In this document: piece after piece, positions 42,277-60,106 of the stretch
Layout: every line of letters begins with the position of its first letter
Position numbering within the stretch: position 1 is the stretch's first letter
NCBI GenBank assembly: GCA_019057385.1
Contig: JAHQJS010000004.1
Span: 352,001 to 416,000 of the forward strand
Reading direction: 5' to 3'
Source of the DNA: Candidatus Borrarchaeum weybense
GTDB lineage: Archaea > Asgardarchaeota > Sifarchaeia > Borrarchaeales > Borrarchaeaceae
DNA length: 64,000 nucleotides
Program-made: the position numbers and the translations under genes
The notes under the pieces: generated by a model
Told to the model about the DNA's origin: nothing
The model's input: the letters and a program-made list of their open reading frames with translations, nothing else
Databases searched by the model: none

Positions 42277-43596
42277 TTGCTTATATTGTTTAAAGTCTTG
42301 CATTATTCTATTAAAATCGGTATAGAAGACTTTTGTCAATTCTATGTGTATTTGCATAAATTTATAACTTCATGTTGTTTAACTAATTCGCTGAAACTTC
42401 GGGGGGTAGAACTAATTCCAACTGTAACTGTCGCAAAAGGCGTAAATCCAGAAAATGCTGTTCAAAAGTTAGTTGATTTGCTGGGCGGTTTTAAATTTAG
42501 CGAATTATCGAATTATCTCCCGCTAAAGGGTAAGATCTTAATAAAACCCAATATTGCACATAATCGCCCTGCACCTATAACAACAAATAAAGATGTAATT
42601 AAGACACTTATAACCTCGTACTTAACTGATGCAGAAGAGATCTTAGTTGGAGATAGCGCTTCGTACCCGACAAAACACATCATGAATCGATCTTGGGAAC
42701 GAATACTTGAAGGTACAGGTTTAGATAAGGCAGTAAATGAAGCTGGGGGAGAAGTGGTCGATCTCGACCAGTACGAATTTGTCGAGGTTGAAAATCCAGA
42801 AAACAAAGTCCTAAGAAAACCATTAATTTCTAAACTTATTTTTGATGTAGACCATGTCATTAATGTTCCTGTTATGAAAACTCACCATATGACAACCGTG
42901 ACGCTCTGCCTTAAAAATTTGCAGGGTATCATCCATGACTCTCAAAAAACATATGCTCATCTTGATAACCTCCACCAGAAGTTAGTTGACATTTACAGAT
43001 GCGTTAAAGACAAATTTACCCTGAACATTATAGATGGAACGATAGCGATGGAAGGTCATGGTCCTGGACTTGGAACTCCCGTATATCTGAACACGCTTGT
43101 TGCGTCTCCAGATATTGTTGCCTGTGATGCAGTTGGTTGTGACATAATGGGCGTTGATCCATTTGGTATTGCACATGTACGATTAGCAAACGCACAAGGA
43201 TTGGGAGAAGGGAGACGTGATCATATAAATATAGTTGGCGATCCACTAGACAAGGTAAAACACCACTTTGCGTTACCAGATTTAGCTATAAGTGGCGTAT
43301 ATGAACGAATAGACATCTACCAAGGCGGAACTTGCCAATACTGCAAGGCAATCGTTAAGACAGCACTAGAATCTCTAAAGAAGAAAGGAGACATTTCCCT
43401 CGTCAAAGAGATGCAAGTTGTTGTAGGTAAAAATCCCTCCGAGCCCTCTACTGAATCAAGTTTGGATTTCATTGTCGGCGACTGCGCCTGTGAAAGCACA
43501 AACTGTAAAGGCACCCGGATCCTTGGTTGCCCTCCCTTCGATGCCTTCGTAAAAATCAGAAAAGCTGTGCATAACAATGCTTCTGAGAAAGTATGA
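42277..43596 (+). CDS. DUF362-domain Fe-S protein with a C-terminal Cys-rich domain
   Basis: ILIKPNI, VPVMKTH..T.VTL.LKNL.G, IDG..AMEG.GP, and C-terminal CQYC / GDCAC / GCPP. The real start is probably near 42415. Confidence 0.85.
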   Translation: MLILFKVLHYSIKIGIEDFCQFYVYLHKFITSCCLTNSLKLRGVELIPTVTVAKGVNPENAVQKLVDLLGGFKFSELSNYLPLKGKILIKPNIAHNRPAPITTNKDVIKTLITSYLTDAEEILVGDSASYPTKHIMNRSWERILEGTGLDKAVNEAGGEVVDLDQYEFVEVENPENKVLRKPLISKLIFDVDHVINVPVMKTHHMTTVTLCLKNLQGIIHDSQKTYAHLDNLHQKLVDIYRCVKDKFTLNIIDGTIAMEGHGPGLGTPVYLNTLVASPDIVACDAVGCDIMGVDPFGIAHVRLANAQGLGEGRRDHINIVGDPLDKVKHHFALPDLAISGVYERIDIYQGGTCQYCKAIVKTALESLKKKGDISLVKEMQVVVGKNPSEPSTESSLDFIVGDCACESTNCKGTRILGCPPFDAFVKIRKAVHNNASEKV

Positions 43597-43711
43597 TTGC
43601 TTATGTATCGGTCGAAATCGATTTTTACGATAAAAGCTTATATATCTTAACAGAAAAAATCTTATGGTATTTAGGTAATGCAATATATGTCTATTTTTGG
43701 GGGAGCAGTAA

Positions 43712-44020
43712 ATGAGTGAGACTCAAAAAGCTCTAAAAAACACTTAAGGAAAAACTAATTGAAGACATTAAAAAGTCTGGCTATCCACTAGAAATCGAAA
43801 TATCGTCCCTCTTGGAGAGAAAATGGTTGATCTTTATAACCAATATTATACAGACAAAAACACAAATCAGCCAAGAGAAATAGACATATTAGCTATCGAT
43901 TCTCGTCTTAATGATTTTGATGCCGAAATGAATTTGGTAATCGAATGTAACAAAAGCAATACACATGCATGGGTATTTTTCCTACATGAACTCTCCCGAG
44001 GCTTATGGAGAAATACTTGA
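43712..44020 (+). pseudogene. Frameshifted, truncated PD-(D/E)XK nuclease-like gene
   Basis: KKSGYPLEIEISSLLE in one frame continues as YYTD....PREIDILA...LVIECNKS..HAWVFF in another. The expected Lys of ExK is replaced by Asn and there is an early stop. Confidence 0.6.
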
Positions 44021-44147
44021 AAAAATAGGCACAAAGGCTTGATTATCTTGATTTAAAAAAGAACCAAGCCTTTATACTTAACTAACAAGATTTCTAATGC
44101 GATAATAAACATAGCATAGGGGGTACACAAGCTTTATAAATTATACA

Positions 44148-44879
44148 TTGTTTATTTTATATGAGATGACTATAATGCAGGAAGATCCAATAATCAAACT
44201 TATAGTTGATGGTCACTATCCTGAAGTCCTTGATATAAGCGAGCAAGTGGATGAAGGTTATAATCTTTCGTTTAATAAGACTGCTTCCCGACTGTATCTT
44301 CGTAAAGGGAATAAAGCAGTTATTGTACCTAAGGGTTTTGAATGGTTTGCGATAAACTATTACAACTTGAAAAAGATGGTCGAACAAATTCCCATCAAAA
44401 TATTCATCAGTTATCCGAGAGAAGACCTTTGGCTAGCTTATAAGTTACACAAAATGCTCTCTGAAGTAGGCGTGCCTGTGTATTTGGGGGAATTATATCC
44501 CGAGCCAGGTGTAAGTCTATGGGACCAGATTGAAACCATGATTCGAAATTCTGATATTTTCATAATCCTGTGGACTCAAAACGCGCTTAATTCTGCATTC
44601 GTGAATCAGGAAATAGGTGTAGCAAAAAGTGCGGAAAAAATAATCATTCCTATAGTCGAGGAAGGAGTTGACCTAAAAGGCGCTTTAGAGGGAAAGGCGT
44701 ACATTTGCCTTAATAAGAAAGATGTTCAAGAAACGCTAAGTTCAATTTGTTCTGCCTTGCACAGATTTTTATCGCAGAAACTTGAGGAGATTAAGAAAAA
44801 ACAATCACAAGGGTTGGCTTTCGCGTTAGGTGCCATTGCTTTCTTGGGGTTACTGTTTGCACTCGGAAATAAAGGATGA
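44148..44879 (+). CDS. TIR-domain protein with a C-terminal transmembrane anchor
   Basis: IFISYPRED..LA..L...L...GV.V, IRNSDIFIILWT.NA..S.FV.QEIG.A....K.IIPI, with the catalytic Glu present. C-terminal GLAFALGAIAFLGLLFALG. The start may be ATG 44166 or 44175. Confidence 0.88.
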   Translation: MFILYEMTIMQEDPIIKLIVDGHYPEVLDISEQVDEGYNLSFNKTASRLYLRKGNKAVIVPKGFEWFAINYYNLKKMVEQIPIKIFISYPREDLWLAYKLHKMLSEVGVPVYLGELYPEPGVSLWDQIETMIRNSDIFIILWTQNALNSAFVNQEIGVAKSAEKIIIPIVEEGVDLKGALEGKAYICLNKKDVQETLSSICSALHRFLSQKLEEIKKKQSQGLAFALGAIAFLGLLFALGNKG

Positions 44880-44930
44880 TTATAACTTGAAAAAAATCTA
44901 AGGACAAAACTAAGAGTTGTTTGTGGTAAC

Positions 44931-45311
44931 ATGGTCAGAATGAATAGTTGGAGTTATATAGCCAGGGTAGTGTTGAATCTACCAGAACATACAGATCGAA
45001 AAGTTATGAAGTGGTCAGTTCCTCACCCCTTGGAGGCGGGTTTTAGAAAAGGACACGGTGATTACGCTGAACAAAAAGGTGATTATAGACTTGCTTTACT
45101 GGATGGTAGAGGTCTACACATAAAAGAATACGATAATTATTATCTCATACATTGGGATAGATGGGATCCGTCAATTAACCCTTTGGGACACATATTCGAG
45201 GATGCACCTCATTGGCTGCCTGTTTTAGGAATTGGTGGTATCTTAACCACATTCTCAATTGCAGCACTCGTGGATAAAGTGGCGGAAGCACTCCATAAAA
45301 GAAAGGAATAA
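44931..45311 (+). CDS. Small protein with a His/Asp-rich domain and a C-terminal transmembrane helix
   Basis: DYR...DGRGLHIKEY..YY.IHWD..DP..NPLGH..EDAP followed by WLPVLGIGGILTTFSIAALV. It lies between the TIR and RNase III genes. Confidence 0.75.
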   Translation: MVRMNSWSYIARVVLNLPEHTDRKVMKWSVPHPLEAGFRKGHGDYAEQKGDYRLALLDGRGLHIKEYDNYYLIHWDRWDPSINPLGHIFEDAPHWLPVLGIGGILTTFSIAALVDKVAEALHKRKE

Positions 45312-45315
45312 GAAT

Positions 45316-46107
45316 TTGGTGAACATCTTGACTCATTTTAAGGAAATCTTTGAACACAATTATTCTGGTCAGTGGTCAGAGTTCCAAAAAATCGGAAAAA
45401 AAATCCAGAACATCATTCACTATGATTTTGTAAACGAAGAGACTCTCTGGAACGCTATGTCTATACGCGGATCTGCATTACCTTCTGAGGAATTTGAGAG
45501 ACTGGAATTTCTTGGAGATTCAATTTTAAAAGCAATTCATGGAATTTCATTATATGAAAAAAGTGAAGAATTTCAACCAGGAGAATTAAGTGTTTTTAGG
45601 CAAAACTTGGAGAATAATGAAAATCTTGCACCACTTGCAGAAGAACTGAAGTATAATGAAATTGGGGCATTGTTAGGAATAGGTAAACTAAGTCCAAACC
45701 AAGCTGCTGACTGCTTCGAGGCATTAATCGGAGCAATTTATGTAGATAAAGGAAATCTAGAAGGTATGATTGGTCTCGCGAAAGGGATTACTCATTTTGA
45801 AAAGAAGCTTAAAGAACTTCGAAAAGCACCATGGGGATCAAAGGATCCAAAATCTTTTCTCCACGAATGGGTTCGCAAGAAATATAGTAATGAGATTAGT
45901 GTCGATTACCCAAGTGTAAATGAAGGAACCAGTAATGCTCCCCAATTTAAAGTGCGTGTTATTATTAAACGAAAAATTAACGACAAGATTGAAATTGAAG
46001 GGCCGTGGGTAGGTAATTTCCCTAAAAAAAAGGAAGGAGAAAAAGAAGCGGCTAAAGCACTTCTTTCAAAATTAGAGGAGGAGGGTAAGCTTGACAGATC
46101 TTCGTAA
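45316..46107 (+). CDS. rnc: Ribonuclease III with C-terminal dsRNA-binding domain
   Basis: Signature ERLEFLGDSIL, second acidic motif ADCFEALIGAIYVD, and dsRBD DPKSFLHEW...PQFKVRV...KKKEGEKEAAKALL. Start placed at TTG 45316 or GTG 45319; the track start is 45259. Confidence 0.95.
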   Translation: MVNILTHFKEIFEHNYSGQWSEFQKIGKKIQNIIHYDFVNEETLWNAMSIRGSALPSEEFERLEFLGDSILKAIHGISLYEKSEEFQPGELSVFRQNLENNENLAPLAEELKYNEIGALLGIGKLSPNQAADCFEALIGAIYVDKGNLEGMIGLAKGITHFEKKLKELRKAPWGSKDPKSFLHEWVRKKYSNEISVDYPSVNEGTSNAPQFKVRVIIKRKINDKIEIEGPWVGNFPKKKEGEKEAAKALLSKLEEEGKLDRSS

Positions 46108-48421
46108 CTCAGAAAGCGAAAAGAATTCAGCAGAATTTTTGTTGAATGTTGTTCCTTTGAAGGTTCAATGGAATAAGAACTGGCAAATCTATGAAATTGA
46201 AGTGGAGGATTGGAACAAGAAAGAAGGTTATAACTTGATACGCGAGTTCAAATTATCTTTTTCTCTAGAAGACGTATTAATTGAAAGTCATGGCCGCCTT
46301 TTAGTGCTTCTCCCTCTAAAAGACCATATCAGTGAAGATGATTTAAATGCATCAAAAACTGCCCTCACACAAAAATTAGGAAAAGGAGTAAATTTAATTC
46401 CAATTAACGATCCGCTAAAGCAAGCTTTTGAAGATGACATAGTTTTGGAAGCAATTCGTAAAGGTTTTGGAGAAATAATTACATACGAACTAAACAAACT
46501 TGGATTCAAGAAGATCGGATCTGGAGGGGGTATTGGAGAGTTCTTACCGCCTGAGAATTGGCTAAATAAAACTCATGAAGTTAACCTCGATAACTCGAAG
46601 ATATTTAGGGCATTTCGTTTATCAATCATTCCGCGTACAGAAGAAAAGCAATTTTATCTTGCTGCAGATCTCAAAGGGAAATACAAAGAGCAACAAAACT
46701 TACTTGATTTATTGAAATTAGGTATAAAGAGAGAAAAATCCTTCAAAGCGTTGACAGATATTGGAAAATCGTGGCAAATTTCCTTAAGCCCAGAAAACGA
46801 AAAACTTTTTCCAAATAGTATCGAACAGGAAACCTTTGAAATTCAAAGTATCGAATCTTGGAATGATATCCAAGAGAACCCATTAGGATGGGGACGATAT
46901 GCTAAAGACTCCTTGAAAAACTTAGTGAAACAGAAGGTTATTTCAGAACCCATGAAAAGCGAACCGTTTCTAGTCGTGAAACCTTCTGGAAGAATGATCA
47001 AGAATCCTAATATATACCTTACTTTACCTGCGCGATTCTTTTATCGTCATTTGAGTCAACCCAGAATAAAAAATGAAAAGCACGATAGGGAGTTCAAAAA
47101 ATTCACTCGGATTTCTGTTCAAAAGAGATACAACCTCATATCTGCATTTTTTGAATTATTGAAAGAAAAAGCATTAATTGGATCAAAGATAAGCTTTGAG
47201 GGACATCCCATTGGATTTTCAAGACCATCAGTAAAAAAGCATATTGTCCGAGAATATGGCAAGCCTCCTAAACTAAATGAATGGGGTGTTGAGTCTTGGG
47301 GGTTACTCAAAAAGATTGATGTGTTTTATGAAAAGAAAATATCTTATAAAGTGGAAAAATTCTACGAAATCTTAGAAAAATATATCCAAGACCTTTTAAG
47401 TCGCTCTAAGATGGACCAACCACAGGTGGAAGTCAACCTACATCCTATTAAAGATGGTAAAATTCCTTTTAACAGAATCCTTGGTGAACTAGATCAAACT
47501 TGTTGTCCGATATTTTTTAGGGGAAGTAACTTTGGTAACTATAGGAAAATTAAGACTAAATTTACACAAGAAAAAGGGATTCCTGTTCAGGTCATCCGAG
47601 AAAAAACGCTTTTTGAAAGCAGGAATCTCTATGCCTTGGTACGAACCGTATTTCCTCAAATGATCGCGAAATCTGGTGGTTTGCCATATAGATTAGCACC
47701 ACCTCTCCTTGATCGGGCAATTTTAATTGGCCTTGATAAAGCCCGTGATTCTTCAGGTAGGAGACCTTCTGCAAGTGCAGGTGTTGCGGCTGTTACACCT
47801 GAAGGGCGATATGTGTCTGGCGCATCAACACCACTGGAAAATAATTTCACAGATTTCATTGATGTCGATAAACTCGCGCCCGATCTTTTACGTGAACTTG
47901 AAGAAAAGAAATTTGAAAAATCATATGAATATGCAGTTATCTTGCGTGATGGATCCCCGAAAACATGTATGCATGAGGTTCCACAGTGGAGAAAACATCT
48001 TCAAGAATATCAAAAGGATTTCATTTTTATTGCATCACGAAAGAGTCATGAATTCCGTGTGTTCCCTAAAGAGATCTCTGATTCTTCTTCACAAAAAGGT
48101 ATCGTGAAGTACAAAATTCCTCTAGTATTAAGTGGAGCGCCATTGCAACCGTCTGACTTCTTAGTTATTGCTGCTAAAGCACCACGAGGCACTCCTCAGC
48201 CTGTCCTGTACACGATAATGGAAAATACCACACCTCTTTCAAATAAGGAGATCAAGGAAAAGGTTATTGCTCAGATCATTAGCATGTCAATGCTTTGTTG
48301 GGAATCTCCTTTGCCAACCAGTCAGCCATTACCGCTTCATTATGCAGATAAACTTGCTGAGTTTACTCAGCTGGTTCAAATGGCGTGGAATTCTTCCAAC
48401 AGGTTTCCGATGTTTATTTAA
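46091..48421 (+). CDS. ago: Long prokaryotic Argonaute (MID-PIWI with N-terminal lobe), catalytic Asp residues present
   Basis: MID motifs YRKIK, IPVQVI and QMIAKSGG. PIWI motifs IGLDKA, ILRDG, RKSH.FRVF, GTPQP and PLPLHYADKLA, with a hydrophobic C-terminus PMFI. 776 aa, with a strong GAGGAGGAGG RBS inside rnc. Confidence 0.92.
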   Translation: MTDLRNSESEKNSAEFLLNVVPLKVQWNKNWQIYEIEVEDWNKKEGYNLIREFKLSFSLEDVLIESHGRLLVLLPLKDHISEDDLNASKTALTQKLGKGVNLIPINDPLKQAFEDDIVLEAIRKGFGEIITYELNKLGFKKIGSGGGIGEFLPPENWLNKTHEVNLDNSKIFRAFRLSIIPRTEEKQFYLAADLKGKYKEQQNLLDLLKLGIKREKSFKALTDIGKSWQISLSPENEKLFPNSIEQETFEIQSIESWNDIQENPLGWGRYAKDSLKNLVKQKVISEPMKSEPFLVVKPSGRMIKNPNIYLTLPARFFYRHLSQPRIKNEKHDREFKKFTRISVQKRYNLISAFFELLKEKALIGSKISFEGHPIGFSRPSVKKHIVREYGKPPKLNEWGVESWGLLKKIDVFYEKKISYKVEKFYEILEKYIQDLLSRSKMDQPQVEVNLHPIKDGKIPFNRILGELDQTCCPIFFRGSNFGNYRKIKTKFTQEKGIPVQVIREKTLFESRNLYALVRTVFPQMIAKSGGLPYRLAPPLLDRAILIGLDKARDSSGRRPSASAGVAAVTPEGRYVSGASTPLENNFTDFIDVDKLAPDLLRELEEKKFEKSYEYAVILRDGSPKTCMHEVPQWRKHLQEYQKDFIFIASRKSHEFRVFPKEISDSSSQKGIVKYKIPLVLSGAPLQPSDFLVIAAKAPRGTPQPVLYTIMENTTPLSNKEIKEKVIAQIISMSMLCWESPLPTSQPLPLHYADKLAEFTQLVQMAWNSSNRFPMFI

Positions 48422-49037
48422 TAACGAGTTGTTCAATATCTTCTCCTAATCTGTCTACAACTCAAATGGAGCATTACACTATATATGAGACAATATAGCA
48501 ACTCGGAGAATCTATGATCCTGCAAATCATCATAATTCATATCAGATACCTAACAGTAGAACAAAAAATAGGATACGAAAATTTGTAGGTATAGCCATAA
48601 AAAGTAATGGGGCGCAAAGTTTTCCTAAAAACGTCAAACTCATAATATTAACCCTGGCGGAATAAGGTAAAGAGATTGACGTGTATGGAGGCGCCGATTC
48701 ATTTCGGCAAACAATACTGAGTAAGCATTGAAAAATTATCTTTCTCAGACAGTAGGCATTGATATAGATGATAAATGACTTTCAATGTAGTCTCCCCCAA
48801 TTTAAAAGAAAGGGAATCCAAAATATATTATGGTAAAAAATAACAAGAAAATGAAGAGAAACTAATAATGAATTATAAAGAAATTATTGGGACTTAAGTA
48901 ATAGTTTGATTAATTTCTTGCCTATTATATTATTTGAATGCTTTAGCGATACGTTATCCTTAAATACTTCCTTTGAAAAAGATCTTGATCAAAATTAATA
49001 TACCTACTAATATTGGAATAACGGGGGGTTATGTCAC

Positions 49038-49427
49038 ATGAATTCAATTCAATTACTAAAGTTAATTGAAAAGTGTGGATCCATTAGTGGTCGAAAAAGA
49101 CTCCAAAAGCTTGTTTTCATCTCAAAAGAAAAGCATAACGTTCCTTTTGAATATAATTTCATTTTACACCTTTTTGGACCTTATTCTTCTGATTTGCAAA
49201 ATGATCTCTCCTTTCTTGTTGATATCGGATTCATAAAAGAAATACCACCAACTCAAGAAATTGAACCATATTTTTATGAATTAACAGACGATGGCAGGAG
49301 ATTTTGTGAAAAAAAAACATTAGATTCGTCTACAGAACAACAATTAACCGATGTTGTTGCAGAACTGTGCAATATTTCAACTGAGGAATTAGTACATATG
49401 TCATATCAGTTATTTTCATCGAAGTAA
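49038..49427 (+). CDS. YwgA-like winged-helix protein
   Basis: ISGRKRLQKLVF, YNF....FGPYSSDL..DL..L...G.I.E and YELT..G motifs. Confidence 0.78.
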   Translation: MNSIQLLKLIEKCGSISGRKRLQKLVFISKEKHNVPFEYNFILHLFGPYSSDLQNDLSFLVDIGFIKEIPPTQEIEPYFYELTDDGRRFCEKKTLDSSTEQQLTDVVAELCNISTEELVHMSYQLFSSK

Positions 49428-51020
49428 ATATTTCTCTTCAAATATGCGTTTAATCTTATCCCTTTTTTCTCTTGGCGAAAAAACGAGTATTTTTTCCGAT
49501 ATTTTACTCCTAATACGAAGCAGTTCACGTATAGGCTCTGCAACTGGCTCGTACGCAATACTTTCTGGGAAAAATCTCCCATTTTCCACTTTTAAAATGG
49601 GAATTCTCTGTTCGATCTCTCTGAGTTGTTTTGCCCTATTTGGTAAGTTGTCTATAATTACATCGCCCTTTACAATTCCTTCTTCTTCGGAAAACGAATC
49701 TTCAATCCATTTATTTAATGCGAAGGGTTCCTTACTATCTCTTAGTTCAGTAACTTTGTCTCTTGCATCAATAGATAGAGCACCCAACGTAGTTTCATAA
49801 GCTTTAACATACAAGCGTCTATTTCTAATTCGAGTACATAAGTCATATACAAGTTCAGAATCGCTATTTTCTAACCATTGAAGAAAACCTTTGTCATTCA
49901 TTGAAAGGTATACGGCGCAAAATTCTTCCTTATTCCAGTCTTCAGTCTCGATTTTCTCATAGATTGCTCTTTGTAACATTTTTTCAGCGCTTCTTACAGT
50001 TTTATGAAAATATACTCGATCATACATCCAATCTCTTGCTAGAACAAAGCTTTCAAAGGCACTAAATCCCTTTTCGCGTATAACAAAATGATATCTTTTT
50101 TCTCCTTCAAATTCTCTTTCTATAAAGGCTAATGATGCTATAAGTCTGTTGATATCAAAATATCCTAAGTGTACTCCTGTATTATGGGTGTCTCTCAATA
50201 AATACTCCATTCGATCAATGTCAAGTGGTGAGGAAATTAGATCTCTTATTAATCTCAGTGGTGCTTCATCGCAACCCTTTCCTTTAATGATTTCTACAAC
50301 TTCAGAAGAATCAATGTCTATCGCATGCAACGCTCTTTTTACCCCATGATCTATCATTAATTCGGAAAAAACTTCATGATTTCCCCAGTTAAGATTTTTC
50401 AGGACAAACTCACCAGCATGGCTAAAAGGACCATGTCCAACATCATGAAGAATTGCAACAGCTTTAAAGAGGTTGCTAAATTCTTTTTCTAAGAATTCTT
50501 CTAGTTTTACAGGCGGTTCTCCTTCAACTCTTACATTCACTTTTTTAAGCATCAAATCAGTGAGATATTTTGTACCTAGAACGTGTGCGAATCTTGTGTG
50601 AGTCGCATTTGGATACACTAGATGTGCCATTCCCAGTTGACAAAAACCTCTTAATCTTTGTATTTCGTATGTGTCGATAAGTACCCTTTCCCATGGTTCC
50701 AAAGCAATATTTCCGAAAATAGGGTCATTAACATAGAGCTCTTTGAATCTCTCCTTTTCTAAAAGTTCGCATTCTTTTAGATAACAGTTGTATTGCTTGA
50801 TGAAATGTCCTTTTTTTATATTTGGATTTGATACACTTAGTCTTCCATTGATAACGTCCATCTGTTCTTTTGCGGAGGAATCAAGAGGCGTTTGTGTATC
50901 AATTATTCCTTGAAGGAAATTTTGATCTCCTGGACTTAAATTTTCAATGTCGCAATCTCTCAATTTAAACATCCTTGCAATCTTAAAGCGATTTTTATCA
51001 AAAGGTGCTGATTCGCTCAC
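49416..51020 (-). CDS. HD-domain phosphohydrolase, SAMHD1/YwfO-like dNTP triphosphohydrolase family
   Basis: DPIFG.I, QRLR...QLG.A..VYP.ATHTRF.H.LG, LHDVGHGPFSH, HE, DIDRM.YL.RD and R..MY..VYFHK motifs. Confidence 0.92.
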   Translation of the reverse strand: MSESAPFDKNRFKIARMFKLRDCDIENLSPGDQNFLQGIIDTQTPLDSSAKEQMDVINGRLSVSNPNIKKGHFIKQYNCYLKECELLEKERFKELYVNDPIFGNIALEPWERVLIDTYEIQRLRGFCQLGMAHLVYPNATHTRFAHVLGTKYLTDLMLKKVNVRVEGEPPVKLEEFLEKEFSNLFKAVAILHDVGHGPFSHAGEFVLKNLNWGNHEVFSELMIDHGVKRALHAIDIDSSEVVEIIKGKGCDEAPLRLIRDLISSPLDIDRMEYLLRDTHNTGVHLGYFDINRLIASLAFIEREFEGEKRYHFVIREKGFSAFESFVLARDWMYDRVYFHKTVRSAEKMLQRAIYEKIETEDWNKEEFCAVYLSMNDKGFLQWLENSDSELVYDLCTRIRNRRLYVKAYETTLGALSIDARDKVTELRDSKEPFALNKWIEDSFSEEEGIVKGDVIIDNLPNRAKQLREIEQRIPILKVENGRFFPESIAYEPVAEPIRELLRIRSKISEKILVFSPREKRDKIKRIFEEKYLLR

Positions 51021-51078: not shown

Positions 51079-51786
51079 TTACATTTTAATGTTTCCTGAT
51101 ATTTTATAAACGGCGATCTCTTGTTCTTTTCTCTCGACTTTGTCTTTTTTAATAATTCTAAATCCTCTCCTATCCCTCGCTAGAATCATATCTTCAGGCA
51201 AATTGCTAAAGATGCTGAGAATGCTATGTTGTTTTAGAGGTTCTTCACTTTGCAAACTCGCAAATGAATAGAATAGTTCTTTTCGTTGTTTTAATTCATG
51301 TAAAATTTGCTCTCTAAATTTATCTATTAAATCCGAAGTAATTAAAATCCCTGTATCATACTCAGGCAAATTAGTGCTCAGTATAGATTCAATATGAACT
51401 TCTTCAAGTTTGAACTCCAAATTTGTTAAGAAAGGAGGATTTACACGGATAGTTAGTGTACCGCTGGGATAGTGATGAGATCGAACTAGTTCTCCTATTT
51501 GGGAGATAATTATTGCCTGAATGTCCTGTTTATCTAAAGAATTAATTACACCATATTCAAGCATAAAATAGTGAATTGTTCTAAGAAAAGCCTGATAAAT
51601 ATGCAAAAGTTGACGGAAAGTATGCCCTTCTTCAAGAAGCTCAACCTGATCTAAGATCTTCTTAATTTCCTGTAACATCTTCTCGATTTCTTCGATAGAC
51701 AGCTGGCTAGAATGTTGACACATCTCTCTAAGGGCTTCTTCAATTTCGTTCATTCTGTCCCATAATTCTAATTCTGAGTGCGACAA
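51079..51786 (-). CDS. Hypothetical protein, possible ScpA/kleisin-like subunit
   Basis: Helical N-terminus, and a C-terminal segment (ILHEL...FYSFASL....SILSIFSNL) loosely resembling the kleisin C-terminal winged helix. Kleisin-sized, and last in an operon after the kite-like gene. Confidence 0.4.
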   Translation of the reverse strand: MSHSELELWDRMNEIEEALREMCQHSSQLSIEEIEKMLQEIKKILDQVELLEEGHTFRQLLHIYQAFLRTIHYFMLEYGVINSLDKQDIQAIIISQIGELVRSHHYPSGTLTIRVNPPFLTNLEFKLEEVHIESILSTNLPEYDTGILITSDLIDKFREQILHELKQRKELFYSFASLQSEEPLKQHSILSIFSNLPEDMILARDRRGFRIIKKDKVERKEQEIAVYKISGNIKM

Positions 51787-51816
51787 TAATATGTAGCCTC
51801 CAAATTACGTGATCTA

Positions 51817-52407
51817 TTATTGTCCAGGCGGTAGAGATGCTTCAACTTCTGTTCCGATAAGAAGAGTATTTCGGATCATGGAGGTAATTTTGGAGATCCC
51901 CTCTTCATCAAATTCGAGAAAGAACGTTGGACCATACTCAAAGCGTAATGGATTGGTACTTGGTTTATAGAGTAACCCCCGTGAAACTAAGAATTCTACA
52001 TGATTGCGGATTTTCGAGATAATCACTGCCCCTTCGCGCAGTTCCTTTTCTAGTTCACTCCACAGTACAGGTTCTTTACGCTGCTCTCTTAACGTAATAA
52101 AAACCCCTAGAACAAAGGCTTGTGATTCACTGAGATAAGATCCAAGTTTTTGTTGAGAAATACAAGTAAGATAATAGTTGTTATCATAACTATAAATCTG
52201 TAGGGTGAATTCGAGGAGAGTAAGGCGCTTTTGGAGATGTTCAAGCAGTTGGCGTAGTATTTTAGGGGTTTTGCATGCTTCTTGTAGGGGTTGTAATGGA
52301 ATTCCTCGAAGTACTGTGATAATTTGTTGATTCTTATCACGAATAATGGTTTCTCTAAATAATAGGGGGATTATGGTTCTGATTAGGAGTTTTTCTGTAA
52401 AGGTCAT
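51817..52407 (-). CDS. Tandem winged-helix kite-like protein (ScpB/Nse3/JetB-like)
   Basis: LLEHLQKRL...EFTLQI....NNYYL, LSESQAFVLGVF, PVLWSELE, HVEFLVSRGLL and FEYGPTFFLEF match the ScpB/MAGE layout. Confidence 0.6.
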   Translation of the reverse strand: MTFTEKLLIRTIIPLLFRETIIRDKNQQIITVLRGIPLQPLQEACKTPKILRQLLEHLQKRLTLLEFTLQIYSYDNNYYLTCISQQKLGSYLSESQAFVLGVFITLREQRKEPVLWSELEKELREGAVIISKIRNHVEFLVSRGLLYKPSTNPLRFEYGPTFFLEFDEEGISKITSMIRNTLLIGTEVEASLPPGQ

Positions 52408-53210
52408 GCGCTCACCTCAGTTAACGCTCCAACACGTATCCAATTCTCTTTAAAAGCATCACCAAGCGTTTTGTGGCTACGGGGAAGTCTAACTGTGAGA
52501 TCAATAATCTCATAGTCATGATATTGTTTTAAGAGCATGTCAACAGCCTTAATTTTTGAGAAATCAAAGTATGATGCAATATATCCTGCAGGTGGGTAAT
52601 ATATTGTCATCATAGGTAAACTATAATGCCCAGTGATAAGTTTGGGACGGATGTCCACTGTATAAGATTTTTCTGGGTTCTGGAAGTTGTTTATTACACA
52701 GAGGTAGGAGTATAGTGTAGTCTGTACTAAATCCTCGATCTGCCACATAGGTGGCTTAAGCAAATTGCTTTTTACTTCGAGAATCCTGTGGATACCCCCA
52801 AGTTGATAATAACAGTCTGCCTGTCCAGTAATAATAAGAAGATCAGGAATCCAATATTCTTCAGAGAGTTGAACTGACCATCTTTGAGGTGCTGGTGACG
52901 ATGAGGGTAGCAACTCAATATGCGCCCTAATATACTCAGGCAACTCTTTAGTTAGGAAATGTAGCATGTATTCTTGTGGAACGCCTGCACTTAACAAGAA
53001 ATCTACCAAAGCACTTCTCTGTAGATATTTGAAAACATCTTTTGGTTGAAGTTTTTGAGTTAAGATCTGAACGAAAATGTCTTCAACTAATCTTCCCCAC
53101 ATGCCTTGTACATGCCGAGGGTATGCCACACTCTCTTTTCGAGTATGAAAATGATAGGTGTTCTGAAGAAACGAACGTAAAGCGCTAACCGTGACGTTTT
53201 GAAGAATCAT
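52404..53210 (-). CDS. PD-(D/E)XK (Cas4/RecB-like) nuclease
   Basis: WGRLVE, IITGQADC, ILEVKS and QTTLYSYL (RecB-type motifs). No Cas4 Fe-S cysteine cluster. Confidence 0.75.
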   Translation of the reverse strand: MILQNVTVSALRSFLQNTYHFHTRKESVAYPRHVQGMWGRLVEDIFVQILTQKLQPKDVFKYLQRSALVDFLLSAGVPQEYMLHFLTKELPEYIRAHIELLPSSSPAPQRWSVQLSEEYWIPDLLIITGQADCYYQLGGIHRILEVKSNLLKPPMWQIEDLVQTTLYSYLCVINNFQNPEKSYTVDIRPKLITGHYSLPMMTIYYPPAGYIASYFDFSKIKAVDMLLKQYHDYEIIDLTVRLPRSHKTLGDAFKENWIRVGALTEVSA

Positions 53211-54430
53211 ATCTCAGTTCTCCCATAGGCTCTTCTATAGAAGCGTTCAATTTCTCTATAAGACCCTAACGTTTGGTCAGTTAGAGGTTCACGATGATAA
53301 TGATATGCTAATTGTAAAATGTCAGCTTCGGTGCTGTATACGGTTTTTTGAGAAGATCCATTTAAAGCTTGGAATGTGTACTTAGACAGTTCCTCAATTA
53401 GGTGTTTAACCATGTTTTCTGTGCTGTCGTAAAGTTTATTCAGATGGTAAAGATTTTTCTTCTGAAAGGTCTTTGTATGGTTTTTGCGGGCCTTAACAAG
53501 CCTTTTTAGCAAATTTGAGGTGTTATAGACGCCTTCAAGACGGTTTTTCCATTCATTTAGAGCGTTCTTAAAGGCTTCATCCTTTGATTTAGCGATCAGT
53601 TCTGATACTTCGGGAGCAGGATTAATATCTTTTCGAGCTGCATATTGAATTTGATATCCTATAGCTGCTTCAACGGTTTTATAATCGAAACTGCTAAACT
53701 TCATTGTTAATTCTTCGATCAGAGCTTTTAAATCTCGAATCATGTGTAAATTTAGTAATTCCAGCCTTATAAATTCGTAGAATCGCTTCAGTTGTTGATC
53801 TGGGAGCGTAAGAATTTTCTCATACCCTTCCATGTAGAACTGAAGGTAGTTCTTTTTTGAATCTGAGTCCGTAAGGAACTCAATTAAACGATATGGCTCC
53901 TCTTCTAGGACAACTTGTCTACCACGGTCTGTTTTTTCTTTGAAAAACATCAAATTTAAAGTCATATTTTTTAACGCTTTGAAGGCACGATACCCACTTG
54001 GTCGAGGCAGTCCAACTACTGAAATCAAATATGCTGGAGAATATCGATATGTCATATATCTATGCTGACTATTCCTTACTGGTGGAATGAGTAAATCTTC
54101 TTTTGATACAAGGTTGTACGTTTCCTTATCTGCTTTGAGGATTGGTGATAGAACTCCGATTAATTTTAGATCCTGTAATATCCTTGGTTCTTGGTTAAAA
54201 TCAACTGGAAACTCGTCTCTATTCAAAGGTATGACATAATCACGTTGATTTTTAACGAGGAAACCTAGTAACTCAGGAAAATTAACGTTAATATTGAAAA
54301 ATACTTCTGCAGCAAGCATCATGCCTCCAAAAATAAGGCGTGTAGACTTTTGGGCCATAACGCCATTAATATAGTCTTGAACTGCGCGAATTCTCGTTTT
54401 TTCATCTTTTTTGGTAATTTTACTAGGCAT
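53207..54430 (-). CDS. Hypothetical protein (helical C-terminal half)
   Basis: 407-aa ORF overlapping both neighbours (ATGA overlap with the nuclease gene). No family recognised. Confidence 0.7.
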   Translation of the reverse strand: MPSKITKKDEKTRIRAVQDYINGVMAQKSTRLIFGGMMLAAEVFFNINVNFPELLGFLVKNQRDYVIPLNRDEFPVDFNQEPRILQDLKLIGVLSPILKADKETYNLVSKEDLLIPPVRNSQHRYMTYRYSPAYLISVVGLPRPSGYRAFKALKNMTLNLMFFKEKTDRGRQVVLEEEPYRLIEFLTDSDSKKNYLQFYMEGYEKILTLPDQQLKRFYEFIRLELLNLHMIRDLKALIEELTMKFSSFDYKTVEAAIGYQIQYAARKDINPAPEVSELIAKSKDEAFKNALNEWKNRLEGVYNTSNLLKRLVKARKNHTKTFQKKNLYHLNKLYDSTENMVKHLIEELSKYTFQALNGSSQKTVYSTEADILQLAYHYHREPLTDQTLGSYREIERFYRRAYGRTEI

Positions 54431-55850
54431 TTACTTCCACATCCTCTTTATATTTTATGAAATGATTATAATAAGCCTCCTGAACGTTCTTATAAATCTT
54501 ACAGAGATGATATTCACTAGATATTCTGGGATAACGGTGATCGGCATGAAGGAAGTTGGTATAGAAAACTCCATTAACTTGCCATGCAAGAAAAGATCTT
54601 AATTTTTTATCACTGGTAAAGACTGAAGAGAACCGTTCTTTTGCCATTGAACTGAAAATACGTGAAATAAGAAGTCCTAAGCCCCAGATTAACTGTCGGA
54701 ATCTTATGGTACTCGTTGAAAAACGCGAAATCAGGCGCCGTGCATCTTTACTTGCTTGCTGTGCCCCTTGCTCTAGATGATCAGTTACAATAACTGCAGC
54801 GAAATAAATCGCTAAATAGGCACTCCAACTTGTCACAAATGCGCTTGAAAGCATTCCACGGACATATCCATGAATAAGAAGTGCTGTAGTTAGAGTTTTT
54901 ACGTCATATTGATCAATAAAGTCTTTTAAAACCTCTGGAAGGCGAATCCATAATGTTGAAGAAGCGCCAGAATCTGGCGGTTCATCTGTACTTGGCTTAT
55001 GGGTGCTTCTAATGGAAATAATGCCGAAATCCTGCAGCCTCGTCCTCAGAGTATCTTCCCGAGTTTCTTTTGTAAGTGCTTCCAGTAATGGAATTTCTTG
55101 AGCATCTACCCAGTCAAACCATTGATTCACATCTGCGATTGTACCTCGCTCTGGGTCTTCTTCATCCTCATCTATGTCATTTTGGCGTGCTCGATCATCT
55201 ATATGTTCGATAATGGCATTAAGATACTGTTTCCATCGATGAGGATCACCTCCAGGTGAACCCGGTTGGTCATGAGCCAAGGGTACACTAGTTGTCATAT
55301 CTAGACGCGGTCTTTCCTCTGAACGCATGATACGCGAGAAAGATTCCAGCAGATCTTGATTTTTGATGATATATTCAAAAATCTCTCTATCATCTTTTGT
55401 TGGTTGTTTGATCCAGTTTACGTTCTTACGGGCGTTTATTAAGGCATCAGGCTCGATAATTTCATCCTTTGGGTCCACGTGATCTCCAAGTTTCCGATTC
55501 CAGAAGAATTGATTTCGTAAAACGTTGAAATATTTGGTTACATGCTCTGTGATTTTTTGTTTTTGGCAGTATTCTGTAAATTCTTGGTATATCTTGCTAT
55601 ATGGCTGTGCAGTAGGTGCTTTTTTAAATATAGCTTGAAATTTCTGGGCAAAATTATCGTATGCTTCTGATCTTCGCAATAAAGTAGAAAAAAAAGGTTT
55701 TAGCGGGTCATGTCCTTCTGATCTCTGTTTTCCTAGAGTAAACAAGGTGTACTGATAATTGCCAATTACTTGGTATAGTAAATATGGGATACTATCTGGA
55801 ATGCTCTTTCTCAATCTTAGGCTAAAGATGTTTGGATACGGTCTCACCAA
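54423..55850 (-). CDS. Hypothetical protein
   Basis: 475-aa ORF, first in the coupled operon, with an acidic loop (DIDEDEEDPE). No family recognised. Confidence 0.7.
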   Translation of the reverse strand: MVRPYPNIFSLRLRKSIPDSIPYLLYQVIGNYQYTLFTLGKQRSEGHDPLKPFFSTLLRRSEAYDNFAQKFQAIFKKAPTAQPYSKIYQEFTEYCQKQKITEHVTKYFNVLRNQFFWNRKLGDHVDPKDEIIEPDALINARKNVNWIKQPTKDDREIFEYIIKNQDLLESFSRIMRSEERPRLDMTTSVPLAHDQPGSPGGDPHRWKQYLNAIIEHIDDRARQNDIDEDEEDPERGTIADVNQWFDWVDAQEIPLLEALTKETREDTLRTRLQDFGIISIRSTHKPSTDEPPDSGASSTLWIRLPEVLKDFIDQYDVKTLTTALLIHGYVRGMLSSAFVTSWSAYLAIYFAAVIVTDHLEQGAQQASKDARRLISRFSTSTIRFRQLIWGLGLLISRIFSSMAKERFSSVFTSDKKLRSFLAWQVNGVFYTNFLHADHRYPRISSEYHLCKIYKNVQEAYYNHFIKYKEDVEVNA

Positions 55851-56046
55851 TCTCTATCACAACCTTAATCTTGTTTTTTCTTACTACAACGTGATGCTAT
55901 CCTAGATGGTTTCATGCTATTTCTCATATATTGTTTCTAGAATAAGAAAGTATTTATATCATAACTAGTCCATTACATATATCATGGATAGTTTCACCTA
56001 TATAAAGATATTGAAAGGAAATGCAGAAGCTTAAGAGGGATTCACA

Positions 56047-56976
56047 ATGGAATTTGAATACGGAGAGATTTATCCTTTTGACGAAGAAGGAGTTAACTAT
56101 TCTGGTACGAGTTGGTATGAACTGGTCGGGCTAGACACGGCAAAACAAAAACTTGAACAGTTTGTAAAGGCAATATTGCAGCAATCCTTTTTTGAAGATA
56201 CACGACTTCCCTTTAGACCCTCTATTCTTTTACAGGGTCCCCCTGGTACAGGAAAGACCGCTCTTACTCTTGCTTTTGGTCAAAAAGAAAAATTCCCCAT
56301 TATTATCTTGCTTACTACTAAAATTATCCGCGCAAAACTAGGTCAATCGGGGGAAAATCTAAGTAATGCCTTTGCGTACGTCAAAGATTATGCTATTCAG
56401 AGAAAAAAACCATTGATATTGTTCATCGATGAATTTGACTCTTTCGCTCGCCAACGGGATGACGTACAAGAAATAGGTGAGATTAAGCGGTTGGTTAATT
56501 CGTTATTAACTGAATTAGATGTTTTAATCGCCCAACATAAGAATATTATTCTCATTGCAGCTACTAATCATGCTAACACCATTGATAGGGCCGCATTCCG
56601 AAGATTTGCTATTCAAATTGATTTTACTATTCCAGCACCTGAGTTACGTCATCATATTTGGAGTGAGTTTCACCGTAGAATTCAGTTAAGAATTCCAGAG
56701 TGTAAGTGGGATCTTGACACATTAGTGGAACGAACTGAAGGATATACTGCAGCTGATATCGAGCGTATCGTTCTTAGCGCAGCTATCGAATACATACATC
56801 AGGATCTCGACACAATCAATACGGAATTGCTTCTCCAACAATTAAGGTATGTGACACCCACATCCAAGCACATGGGCAAGGAAGAATTGTCTGATCTTTT
56901 AGACCTAGATAGTATTGATCTCCGCAAGATTAAAGGAATTACCGATGGATTTAAGACTCAAGCAAGTCGTTTATAA
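56047..56976 (+). CDS. AAA+ ATPase (CDC48/FtsH-type single module)
   Basis: Walker A GPPGTGKT, Walker B LFIDEFD, GEIKRLVNSLL, AATNH and the arginine finger DRAAFRRF. Confidence 0.93.
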   Translation: MEFEYGEIYPFDEEGVNYSGTSWYELVGLDTAKQKLEQFVKAILQQSFFEDTRLPFRPSILLQGPPGTGKTALTLAFGQKEKFPIIILLTTKIIRAKLGQSGENLSNAFAYVKDYAIQRKKPLILFIDEFDSFARQRDDVQEIGEIKRLVNSLLTELDVLIAQHKNIILIAATNHANTIDRAAFRRFAIQIDFTIPAPELRHHIWSEFHRRIQLRIPECKWDLDTLVERTEGYTAADIERIVLSAAIEYIHQDLDTINTELLLQQLRYVTPTSKHMGKEELSDLLDLDSIDLRKIKGITDGFKTQASRL

Positions 56977-59900
56977 CTCTCTTTTGTGGAAAGTAACGGA
57001 CGCCAAGAGTATGAGTTCAAAAGAAAGCTTAAAAACAGCGAACTTCCAAGACATGTATCTGGTTTTAAAAGCTGTCGAAGTAAACAATTTCGGAATACAT
57101 AAGCATTTAACAATGTCCTTTGAGAAACCTATCAACTTAATTGTTGGGGCAAACGCAGTTGGAAAAACTACACTCTTAGATGCTGTTAGCATTGCTTTAG
57201 GTGGAGAGAGTGATCGCTACGGGACTCTCAAAGATTTAGTAGGTTATGTTGGACCCGCGGGAGACAAAGCTTCAGTAACAGTGTACTTGAGAAATCCGTC
57301 TAATGAGAACAAAAATCACCCACTTGTTGACTATGGAATATATACGAACTACGTGAAAGAAGAATTAAAAATTGAGGTCACAATCACCCGAGATTCAGTT
57401 TACTGGCAAGTAAATGATCGACAAAAAAAGCATGGCCGACAAGAAATTCGGAAGATGCTTCAAAGTGCAACCATTCGGATAGATATGTCTGATGAGATTT
57501 TGTTTACACGTAAAGACACGATTGATAAGTTCATGAGCGGAAGTCCTGTCGAACAGTTCCAACAAATTCTCACTTCTCTTAAACTCGCGAACTTACAGGA
57601 AGATATCCAAAACACTCAAGGTGAAGTCAAGAATTTACAAAATAAACTCCCGGAATTAGATTATCGACGGAAAAGTCTTGAGAAGGATCTTGAAGTAGCT
57701 AAACAGTTGAAAGAACAATATGAGCGAAAGTTTGACTTATTAGACCAAAAAGCAAGATTAACAAACATCTTGAACTGGATAGAGTATAATGAATGGCAAA
57801 CACGACTAATAGAGTTAGATGAGCAGACAACTCTCTTAAAAAAAGATCTTGAGGAGTTACAACACGAATACCAAGAAATAGAAACTCAATCTAAGCAAAA
57901 CAAACGAAATGAGCAGTTATTACAAGACCAGCTAAACGAGATGCAAACAAGGCTGACAGATTTAACCCGCCAAAATGAGGAGAGACTCCGAAATATCGGC
58001 TTAATAAAAGAAGATATTGCTGGGAAGGAGGCGGAACACCGTATCAAAGATCAGTACCTTCAAGAAAATGTTCAAAGACAGGAAAATTTGCAAAAAATCT
58101 ACCAAGAAGAAATTATTAAAGGCTCTCTCTTGTCATTAGAAGATTGGAAGAATTCTAAACCATTAATTGAGGAAAAAAGACGTGCACTAAAAGACTTACA
58201 GCAAAAAGATATACAGGCACTACAGACATGCAATAGCCGGTTATCACATCTTGCCACACGGATCAAGCGGTATGATACGCAGGAAAATCAAATACTCAAT
58301 GAGTTAGCTAAACTGAATCAAACTGTAACAAGTGGAACAAAATTTAATGCTGGGGAACACCATGTATTAGCACTACGCCGAGCCTTGGATCAGCTTCTTT
58401 GGGGGAAAAAAGTTACAAAACCGCTATTTCAGGAGATTTTTATAAAACCTGATGGCGAACTCTGGGAAGGAGCCATAAATCATGCGCTTGGGGGATTGCG
58501 TTCATATGTTCTAGCTAAGGATGCGGCAACAATTAATCAATTGAGAGAGTACATGGAACAGAACAATTTCAGTGTTTGGGTCGCACGTTTACCCAAAATA
58601 GCAAATATTCCAACTAGATCACTACAATCTCTTCCTGAAAACTTAAAAGATCTTATAGTAGGCTGGATTGACGATTTTTTGGAGTTTGATGATCCATTTA
58701 TTGCTACCTATCTTTTAGCGAGAACTCGCGCACTTCTGGTAAAGAGTAATGCTTCCGCCACTGAACTCTTAGAACTGGCTAAAATAACGGGCGCAGACGT
58801 GTACACTGCGCAACCCTCGGTATTTAAACCTGATGGACGCTTCCGCACGAACGTCCGAACCTCCTACTCATTAGGAAAAAGAACTGATAATATCGAGAAA
58901 GTCATAGAACTTCAAACAAAATTAGAGCACATCAAAAATGAACGCGCAAAATTAATAGACCAGCGTTTAAAGATTCTTGAAAAAAAGGCAGAGCTTCAGG
59001 ATAAGCAAGCTCAATTGCAAGAACAAATCGATGCATTACAAGATCAAATCACTCACATGGCCAAGAAGGATCCTACATCGATACTGAAATCTATTGAAGA
59101 ACTAGACAAAACGATTAAGGAGCAACATAAAGAAATTGAGCGAATAGCAGAAGAGTTAGAAAGCACTAAGACTCGATTAAAGCCATTAACAGAGAATACC
59201 TTCATTGAGGAAATTAAATACCTTAATAATGAGATCCCTAAAATTCAAGAACAGATTGGGGGATATAGAACTCACGACCAAGTTCTTGAAAATCGTTTAA
59301 TTGAATTAAAGTCAAAAATTGAAACTATGAAAGCCGAATATCAAGATATTGAAAGAGATCTAGAGCTCCGCCGCAGTAAAGTTGCACAATATAAAGAAAG
59401 CTTGGTCGATCCTGCCCCAAAACGCCTTCCACCCAAAACAAAAGTTCTGAGAGAAATTTATGAAATTGATGGTGCTGTAAATCAAATCACAGCCACTGCT
59501 TATGATGTAGAGCAGTACGAGAAACTAGAGAAATATTATCAAGAAACAGGACAAGATATTGAGAGAGTTTCACAAGCACTAGATGAAACTAGACAGCAAC
59601 TTGAAGATTACTATCAAGAATGGAAACAACGAGTCAAGTTTGTTCTTCAACAGCTTCAGGATGTGGCGAACTTTTTACTATCTCCTTTCATTCAGGTTAG
59701 ATGCTCTACAACTAATTCCTTGGATATGAAACAGATTGGTCTAAAAGTAGAGTTTACTAACAAGACGAATGGAAACGAGAAATATGAACTTTATCATGTG
59801 GCTTCCGGTGGTGAGCGTGCTTTAATCACTCAATCATTGTTCTTAGCTTTACATACGCTGAATCGAAGTTCTCCTATCCACATTGTCGATGAATTTACTC

Positions 59901-60106
59901 AACGTTTGGACGAAAAATATCGCGGTCACGCCTTTATCATGGTTAAACGCCTTCTAGAAAAACTCAAGGAAATAAACGGACAGAATGGCGGTTATAACTG
60001 GAATCTGATTCCTCAGCTCATTTTAGTTGCACCAATAGTAGTAGGAAGCTATATCCCTCCAGAAATAGATACTCAATATTTATTCAAAGTAACTAAACTG
60101 AGTTAA
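56915..60106 (+). CDS. SMC-family ATPase, SMC5/6-like
   Basis: Walker A GANAVGKTT, two long coiled coils flanking a hinge-like domain (KPLFQEIFI..WEGAINHALGG), signature ASGGER..LFLAL and Walker B/D-loop IVDEFTQRLD. The start may be ATG 56945, 57011 or 57053. Confidence 0.9.
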   Translation: MISARLKELPMDLRLKQVVYNSLLWKVTDAKSMSSKESLKTANFQDMYLVLKAVEVNNFGIHKHLTMSFEKPINLIVGANAVGKTTLLDAVSIALGGESDRYGTLKDLVGYVGPAGDKASVTVYLRNPSNENKNHPLVDYGIYTNYVKEELKIEVTITRDSVYWQVNDRQKKHGRQEIRKMLQSATIRIDMSDEILFTRKDTIDKFMSGSPVEQFQQILTSLKLANLQEDIQNTQGEVKNLQNKLPELDYRRKSLEKDLEVAKQLKEQYERKFDLLDQKARLTNILNWIEYNEWQTRLIELDEQTTLLKKDLEELQHEYQEIETQSKQNKRNEQLLQDQLNEMQTRLTDLTRQNEERLRNIGLIKEDIAGKEAEHRIKDQYLQENVQRQENLQKIYQEEIIKGSLLSLEDWKNSKPLIEEKRRALKDLQQKDIQALQTCNSRLSHLATRIKRYDTQENQILNELAKLNQTVTSGTKFNAGEHHVLALRRALDQLLWGKKVTKPLFQEIFIKPDGELWEGAINHALGGLRSYVLAKDAATINQLREYMEQNNFSVWVARLPKIANIPTRSLQSLPENLKDLIVGWIDDFLEFDDPFIATYLLARTRALLVKSNASATELLELAKITGADVYTAQPSVFKPDGRFRTNVRTSYSLGKRTDNIEKVIELQTKLEHIKNERAKLIDQRLKILEKKAELQDKQAQLQEQIDALQDQITHMAKKDPTSILKSIEELDKTIKEQHKEIERIAEELESTKTRLKPLTENTFIEEIKYLNNEIPKIQEQIGGYRTHDQVLENRLIELKSKIETMKAEYQDIERDLELRRSKVAQYKESLVDPAPKRLPPKTKVLREIYEIDGAVNQITATAYDVEQYEKLEKYYQETGQDIERVSQALDETRQQLEDYYQEWKQRVKFVLQQLQDVANFLLSPFIQVRCSTTNSLDMKQIGLKVEFTNKTNGNEKYELYHVASGGERALITQSLFLALHTLNRSSPIHIVDEFTQRLDEKYRGHAFIMVKRLLEKLKEINGQNGGYNWNLIPQLILVAPIVVGSYIPPEIDTQYLFKVTKLS

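Follow-up and report, generated by a model that had tools for sequence, protein, structure and literature searches.

Four genes stand consecutively on the + strand of the window (the whole 64-kb stretch of DNA that was analysed), as read from its list of open reading frames: a gene for a TIR-domain protein, a gene for a small membrane protein of 126 aa, rnc, and a long ago (Table 1). They are closely spaced, with 51 nt between TIR and the small gene and 4-7 nt between the small gene and rnc, and rnc overlaps ago by 17 nt. A preliminary description of this DNA had set out the same succession on one strand and had called the Argonaute long; the four reading frames lie where it placed them, and the Argonaute has 776 aa. 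A TATA-like box of archaeal type (TTTATAAA), the putative promoter of the cassette, precedes TIR and is unchanged across three copies (the window, L005 and L009). No second promoter box 5' of the small gene is conserved among the cassette copies, and the four genes are probably co-transcribed. TTG 44148 was rejected as the start of TIR: relatives are called at the codon equivalent to ATG 44175, which is the likely start and gives a protein of 234 aa.

Table 1. Features of the four-gene cassette and of the island that contains it (positions in the window unless a contig is named).
Feature	Position	Strand	Remarks
Island left repeat copy (3' end of DUF362 gene)	43322-43618	+	298 bp, 80% identity to right copy
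Decayed gene, PD-(D/E)XK-like words (EIDILA...IECxK)	43714-44070	+	stops and frameshifts; three-frame translation
Cassette leader, conserved; left end of mobile cassette	44010-44174	+	blastn homology begins 44010-44017
TATA-like box, archaeal type, TTTATAAA	44133-44140	+	35 nt 5' of TIR ATG
TIR	44148/44175-44879	+	ATG 44175 likely start; Pfam TIR_2
Small gene	44931-45311	+	126 aa; large unnamed family; no Pfam
rnc	45316/45319-46107	+	Pfam RNase III and dsrm (dsRBD)
ago	46091-48421	+	776 aa; long Asgard Argonaute ASG190_00881; Pfam Piwi
Cassette right end	48421-48430	+	L009 homology ends ~10 nt past ago stop codon
Island right repeat copy	C4:424037-424334, beyond window		

The TIR protein matches Pfam TIR_2 (E=1e-16) and is the only TIR_2 match in the whole genome. 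It is composed of an N-terminal domain of ~70 aa, the TIR domain, and a long helix ending in a hydrophobic, TM-like segment. The N-terminal domain, which is absent from the preliminary description, belongs to no recognised family, and a search of the Atlas with the N-terminal 74 aa yielded no usable match. The TIR fold is close to that of the SARM1 TIR (Z 13.7, rmsd 2.3, 120 aligned). Two features previously claimed for the protein, retention of the catalytic Glu and a C-terminal TM helix, hold: Glu146 (counted from ATG 44175) does not vary among 29 homologues, the alphaC Glu of the TLR1 TIR aligns with it, and the C-terminal hydrophobic helix (KD 2.27) is present in 27 of the 29. Other Asgard TIRs (L154, L155 and L156) match the TIR part of the alignment and are without the N-terminal domain; their neighbours, as read from sequence, look like HEPN, PIN-type and cyclase-like genes.

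The small protein is modelled as a small alpha/beta domain followed by a long C-terminal helix (pLDDT 95). Of its earlier characterisation as a His/Asp-rich domain with a TM tail, the tail stands (KD 2.03; a hydrophobic segment is found in 83 of 127 family members) and the richness proves modest (7 His and 8 Asp in 94 aa): the real signal is a set of five near-invariant residues, H63, H74, D76, H87 and D91, which are 98-100% conserved among 127 homologues. This His3-Asp2 set is a putative metal site, and the simplest reading of the protein would be that of a membrane-tethered metal-binding enzyme. The family comprises 577 clusters at E<=0.001; no name was found for it, and the protein matches no family in Pfam, NCBIfam, PHROG or PADLOC. 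Fold searches (of the PDB by Foldseek and VIA wide, of BFVD and of the Atlas) returned unnamed archaeal clusters only, the Atlas look-alikes being mostly archaeal. The top-scoring PDB entry, AcrID1 (Z 4.4, rmsd 4.3, 72 aligned), does not rise above noise, and comparison with nucleases gave no fold or sequence match. (A confident model with no solved-fold match does not prove a new fold.) One profile match, P0242, an oyster ankyrin protein, is likely false and was excluded from the alignments. An unannotated homologue is carried by the Salinigranum rubrum plasmid NZ_CP026313.1 (L152:6001-6249), beside GIY-YIG and MoxR genes; the viral contigs and phage records that were searched contain no homologue of TIR or of the small protein.

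The rnc product, an RNase III domain joined to a dsRBD, keeps the ERLEFLGD signature and the DCFEA acidic pair. The PIWI tetrad of the Argonaute, D549-E583-D620-D753, is intact; across 24 homologues its three Asp residues are kept in 24, 24 and 23, respectively, and every one of them has E or D at position 583. The MID pocket, Y484-K488-Q500-K527, is invariant among homologues, and the best solved matches of the protein are PIWI proteins. An rnc-ago pair of this clade, judging by its families, would need no effector for target cutting. In aligned stretches this Argonaute is identical to Asgard_ASG190_00881 (Sif, 776 aa, TTG start) of the Bastiaanssen 2024 supplement, which places the host in the Sifarchaeia, and in the trees of that work ASG190_00881 goes with ASG073_01058, ASG159_02762 and ASG523_03052, outside the HrAgo1 pair; its putative placement in subclade 9 follows only by elimination from the preprint text. 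Consecutive rnc-ago genes are described for the HrAgo1 clade and subclade 9 (Bastiaanssen 2024 preprint), and rnc directly upstream of a long Asgard ago, on the same strand, is repeated in L016, L017, L027, L107, L109, L110, L111 and L171.

Other genes recur around this pair. Either rnc-ago or ago is followed by an AAA ATPase and/or a protein of ~1150-1210 aa at L111:10344-18316, L171:3465-11333, L017:4506-9024 and L018:1644-6310; the large protein is an SF1 helicase by Pfam in L111 and L171, which fits the published rnc-ago-helicase clusters. A MoxR AAA and vWA pair lies near this Ago clade at three outside loci (L107:7934-11747, L109:3725-6995 and L172:2954-6222) and adjoins a 30-codon ago remnant in the window's own genome (L014:8367-11457; G000:C4:1031-1034 kb); it recurs more widely than TIR does. 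In several assemblies (L005:10390-11177; also L006, L007 and L028) rnc has a frameshift near codon 25, and an in-frame ATG (10443 in L005) could still yield a 244-aa protein with both domains.

The TIR-small-rnc-ago order is found at two other chromosomal sites in close relatives. At one of these (L005-L008 and L028, counted as one locus) identity to the window is 93% for TIR, 72% for the small gene, 91% for rnc and 85% for the start of ago; at the other (L009/L010, likewise counted as one) the corresponding values are 91%, 59-65%, 72% and 90%, the last for ago. L012, which is 100% identical to the window, was rejected as an independent locus. The preliminary description had named as a refutation that TIR and small-protein homologues are never found beside rnc-ago; they stand beside it, in the same order, at all three sites. 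Homology extends from the conserved leader to just past ago (86.7% over 4433 nt with L009). Orthologues of the genes flanking L005 (most at 87-95%) and of the L009 flanks (81%) lie at two other places in the window's genome, so that the cassette occupies a different site in each of three close relatives. These three insertion sites, the absence of the cassette from four congeners, and remnants in the window's own genome together show mobility: the four genes travel as a genuine 4.4-kb cassette with sharp common ends. Elsewhere in its own genome there is, besides the 30-codon ago tail, a full-length solo rnc paralogue (78%) without ago, near a transposase-like ORF (L013:8101-8868; G000:C7:633100), and congener G004 has a truncated rnc between housekeeping genes (L167:7997-8497). 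Only one clade of near-identical copies, in one Sifarchaeia lineage, has the four-gene layout.

TIR, rnc and ago are under purifying selection (among cassette copies, dN/dS is 0.11-0.15 for TIR and 0.13-0.17 for rnc; for full-length ago it is 0.18). The small gene differs between the window and L005 by 9 synonymous and 37 non-synonymous changes (dN/dS 1.17; Fisher p=5e-7 against TIR plus rnc), the remaining pairs having dN/dS of 0.22-0.35; this suggests a burst of diversification or exchange. Identity of L009 to the window is a patchwork along the cassette, ranging over 68-98%: the small gene and rnc, with dS of about 1, lie between TIR and ago at 0.3-0.4, and their position in the cassette is unchanged. 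The patchwork probably reflects recombination with an older copy of the same layout. That the diverged small gene and rnc of L009 occupy an unchanged place implies that the layout survived recombination and is older than its appearance.

In both of the other copies TIR is preceded by a 330-aa gene (L005:8024-9016 and L009:1884-2873; 92% identical, dN/dS 0.15) with a C-terminal PD-(D/E)XK-like motif and a weak PADLOC PD-T4-1 match (E 3e-8), which may be a fifth passenger of the cassette. It has no tblastn match in the window, and the decayed gene listed in Table 1 is not its homologue. The window's own genome keeps only the 5' end of this gene (G000:C6:559216-559458), at the site where L009 holds the cassette.

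The cassette occupies the left end of an island of ~28.4 kb, which has a copy of a 298-bp repeat (80% identity between the copies) at either border. The island is absent at its site from congeners G002, G003 and G004, where DUF362 stands with no island behind it; in G003 and G004 DUF362 runs into the gene that is found past the right repeat copy. Directly after ago, at 49038-51020 of the window, are a convergent SocA/Panacea-like small protein (PADLOC PDC-M19A match, E 6e-13) and an HD phosphohydrolase, a toxin-antitoxin-like arrangement. Farther inside the island, at 51079-63133, five ORFs on the minus strand, none with a Pfam family, lie facing the genes for an AAA ATPase, an SMC-like protein of 1063 aa and an Hsp70-like protein of 950 aa. 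Beyond the window (L173:7431-13689), the island ends on the right with helicase, Cas1-like and RAMP genes, the RAMP module being multi-copy in the genome.

Outside this lineage the parts of the cassette are mostly found apart. TIR and the small gene are absent from six of the six other rnc-ago loci with at least 1.4 kb upstream (L016, L017, L107, L109, L110 and L111); the Ago homologues of these loci (37-59% identity) are assigned by their sources to several Asgard groups, and the genes upstream differ from locus to locus (vWA-MoxR, NucS-like, radical SAM, small unknown ORFs). The TIR subfamily was read at 12 outside metagenome loci (46-65% identity), several of them short, and two of its members are named from Thermoproteota-type MAGs. 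Neither rnc nor an Ago of this clade adjoins any of the 12, and the small gene is missing from 10 of the 11 that are informative; the neighbours are varied and often of defence or mobile type (DGQHR-like, restriction-modification-like, AbiTii, ParA; partly read from sequence). At L033 an unrelated long-B pAgo and a Cas4-like nuclease lie four genes downstream of a subfamily TIR, which is taken as co-location on an island. Members of the small family are present in 16 other Asgard genomes; 15 loci, read to ~5 kb, contain no TIR, rnc or ago. One outside relative, 64% identical, has a PC4-like ORF (read from sequence) on one side and an unrelated gene on the other. In surveys of GTDB genomes, which cover Asgardarchaeota only and include many incomplete genomes, 5 of 300 others have this Ago clade and 16 of 399 have the small family; no other genome has the full-length TIR subfamily. 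The sets do not overlap: the 5 other genomes with this Ago clade lack both the small family and any match to the TIR alignment. Finally, in L011 TIR is eroded, and the small and rnc reading frames are intact.

The nearest outside TIR is that of L029 (65% identity), which is placed as sister to the cassette TIRs with weak support (83/84). A small-family gene begins 32 nt after it, and no rnc comes next. This small gene nests in a different subfamily from the cassette copies, and an AU test rejects its grouping with them (p=0.0002, for a grouping chosen post hoc and a long branch). Its place outside the cassette group implies either independent recruitment or replacement in place; as judged from this single locus, chance is unlikely to have put two different small genes behind sister TIRs. 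Prediction of a complex of TIR with the small protein gave a score of 0.00, which is counted neither for nor against binding.

The reading favoured here, for which the chances are judged to be about even, is that the cassette comprises separately acting defences accreted under one promoter. The core would be an old Asgard rnc-ago pair, whose RNase III probably cuts dsRNA into guides and whose catalytically intact Ago would slice matching nucleic acid or invader RNA. TIR and the small gene would have been added in front of rnc-ago in one Sifarchaeia lineage. The TIR protein would be a self-contained, membrane-anchored, one-gene abortive device: its N-terminal domain probably senses an infection cue, upon which the tethered TIR domains would assemble and (by the precedent of the TIR family) cleave NAD+ at the membrane, leading to abortive death or dormancy. 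The small protein, membrane-anchored and probably a metal-binding enzyme, would act alone. The genes thus would move, recombine and probably be expressed together, and TIR would not be switched on by Ago. This reading is preferred because rnc-ago is found without both genes at every one of the other loci that could be judged, because neither rnc nor this clade of Ago adjoins the outside TIR loci, because the small family stands alone at the Asgard loci that were read, because L011 combines an eroded TIR with intact small and rnc genes, and because the Ago tetrad is intact, unlike those of effector-coupled short and long-B pAgos. Since all three parts usually occur without each other, bundled defences are likelier than one machine. 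What argues against accretion is that three sites retain the order of the four genes, with TIR, rnc and full-length ago at dN/dS of 0.11-0.18, that the layout of L009 outlived recombination, that the copies share sharp ends and have no second conserved promoter box, and that the sister TIR of L029 also precedes a small-family gene.

The arrangement in L029, TIR and then a small-family gene with no rnc, lends itself to another and rather unlikely reading, in which TIR and the small protein form a real two-gene module that hitch-hikes on rnc-ago. Such a module could be Thoeris-like, with TIR making an NAD-derived signal that the small protein binds in its His/Asp pocket and then acts on the membrane; alternatively, the small protein could be a sensor or brake for TIR. 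The C-terminal membrane anchors of both proteins are consistent with this, as is the precedent of Thoeris types that combine a TIR with a TM effector (10.64898/2025.12.03.692087). However, L029 is one outside case only, 10 of the 11 informative outside TIR loci are without the small gene, small genes mostly have no TIR nearby, and L011 kept its small gene when it lost TIR. The preliminary description had gone further, proposing a four-gene system that couples RNA-guided sensing to NAD+ depletion, signalling or membrane disruption. The part of this proposal that survives is the conserved, co-mobile and probably co-transcribed unit at three sites; the part that fares poorly is a single Ago-activated system, in which RNase III would make guides and the active, PIWI-like Ago, besides slicing, would trigger the membrane TIR and/or the small protein so as to deplete NAD+ or break the membrane. 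That is judged unlikely. Tight same-strand packing behind one conserved TATA-like box and an order that is identical at three sites and was preserved through patchwork recombination point to such a system; long-B pAgos do activate effectors that have no APAZ, partner nucleases accompany some long-A pAgos (PMC13535254), and in L033 a long-B pAgo, albeit unrelated, follows four genes behind a subfamily TIR. Nevertheless, TIR and the small protein have no APAZ or N-domain similarity, the tetrad of this Ago is intact, Ago homologues at 50-59% identity are without both genes, one copy of the cassette has lost TIR, and the parts are mostly found apart.

Very unlikely is a reading in which the small protein serves rnc-ago as a membrane-tethered, metal-dependent nuclease that trims or feeds guides, TIR being a bystander. 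Membrane-anchored Zucchini plays such a role for PIWI (an analogy; no homology is claimed), and PIWI proteins are the best solved matches of this Ago. The five near-invariant His and Asp residues suggest a metal site, and the small gene and rnc changed as one unit in the L009 exchange and stayed side by side in L011 once TIR was lost. Yet that co-exchange could reflect mere adjacency, the protein resembles no nuclease in fold or sequence, and no other rnc-ago locus contains its gene, which is common in genomes that lack this Ago.

Silencing by RNase III and Argonaute and NAD+ cleavage by TIR NADases are two pillars of eukaryotic innate immunity, and a 4.4-kb Asgard cassette carries both. Its compactness makes it a cheap test of whether an Ago that slices is also able to set off cell suicide. 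If Ago does trigger TIR, through the small protein or together with it, then relatives of eukaryotes would join RNAi-like silencing to TIR cell death with no APAZ; should the parts act separately, the cassette illustrates the bundling of defence genes in a mobile unit and is of lesser interest. Two side results hold under either reading: an archaeal single-gene TIR subfamily with an unrecognised N-terminal domain and a TM tail, and the 577-cluster family with its invariant His3-Asp2 set.

The layout had not been recognised as a named system in the preliminary description, and no description of it was found in the literature searched (subscription papers not covered). It shares with SPARTA, which consists of a short pAgo and TIR-APAZ (Koopal et al., PMC9097488), a TIR with catalytic Glu in an Ago operon, and SPARTA TIRs are the top Foldseek matches of the cassette TIR domain. 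However, the pAgo of SPARTA is short and without the catalytic tetrad, whereas the cassette Ago is full-sized with its tetrad intact; and where the SPARTA TIR is fused to APAZ, the cassette TIR has its unrecognised N-terminal domain, helix and TM tail instead. The absence of a recognisable APAZ, previously remarked, is confirmed: hhalign finds no APAZ or Ago N-domain similarity in TIR or the small protein (probability <1%), there is no profile similarity to the Ago alignment, and the PADLOC Aga_TIR model covers the TIR part only (profile positions 5-88 of 430). Moreover, unlike the SPARTA TIR, the cassette TIR is not adjacent to ago and is not generally co-inherited with it.

The SiAgo-Aga1-Aga2 system (10.1101/2021.12.09.471704) and the long-B BPAM/BPAS systems (PMC13535254) also have a membrane protein or NADase in a pAgo operon and provide an archaeal precedent. 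Their Agos are inactive and effector-dependent (effector-coupled short and long-B pAgos are without the catalytic tetrad; PMC9097488, PMC13535254), in contrast with the Ago of the cassette. The small protein differs from their effectors in being single-pass and mostly found without Ago, and in matching no PADLOC model; compared with Aga2/bAgaM-type effectors, it has no PADLOC, Pfam or NCBIfam match and a maximal fold Z of 4.4 (an unlisted family is possible). Nor is the small gene conserved beside Ago across the Ago clade: it is absent from all six informative outside rnc-ago loci. With Thoeris, of which many TIR plus TM-effector types are described (V-XI; 10.64898/2025.12.03.692087), the cassette shares a TIR with catalytic Glu followed by a gene for a small TM protein, and the TIR has weak matches to ThsB profiles (PADLOC E 1.5e-8; Pfam ThsB_TIR 18.1 bits, below the 21.2 cut-off). 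It differs in that the cassette TIR is itself membrane-anchored and usually without a fixed partner (the cassette clade and L029 have a small gene next to TIR; 10 other informative loci do not), and in that the small protein matches no known effector family.

The closest likeness is to the rnc-asAgo clusters (Bastiaanssen 2024), in which an rnc with RNase III domain and dsRBD immediately precedes, in the same orientation, the gene of a long Ago whose tetrad is intact. So it does here, where the RNase III would supply guides to the Ago. The word TIR is absent from the main text of both versions of that paper. The cassette differs from those clusters in that no DExD/H helicase is adjacent in the window, the flanks being DUF362 upstream and Panacea-like and HD genes downstream. 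TIR and the small gene are additions to the rnc-asAgo cluster that are seen only in one Sifarchaeia lineage, and the four-gene layout is a lineage-restricted variant of that published cluster.
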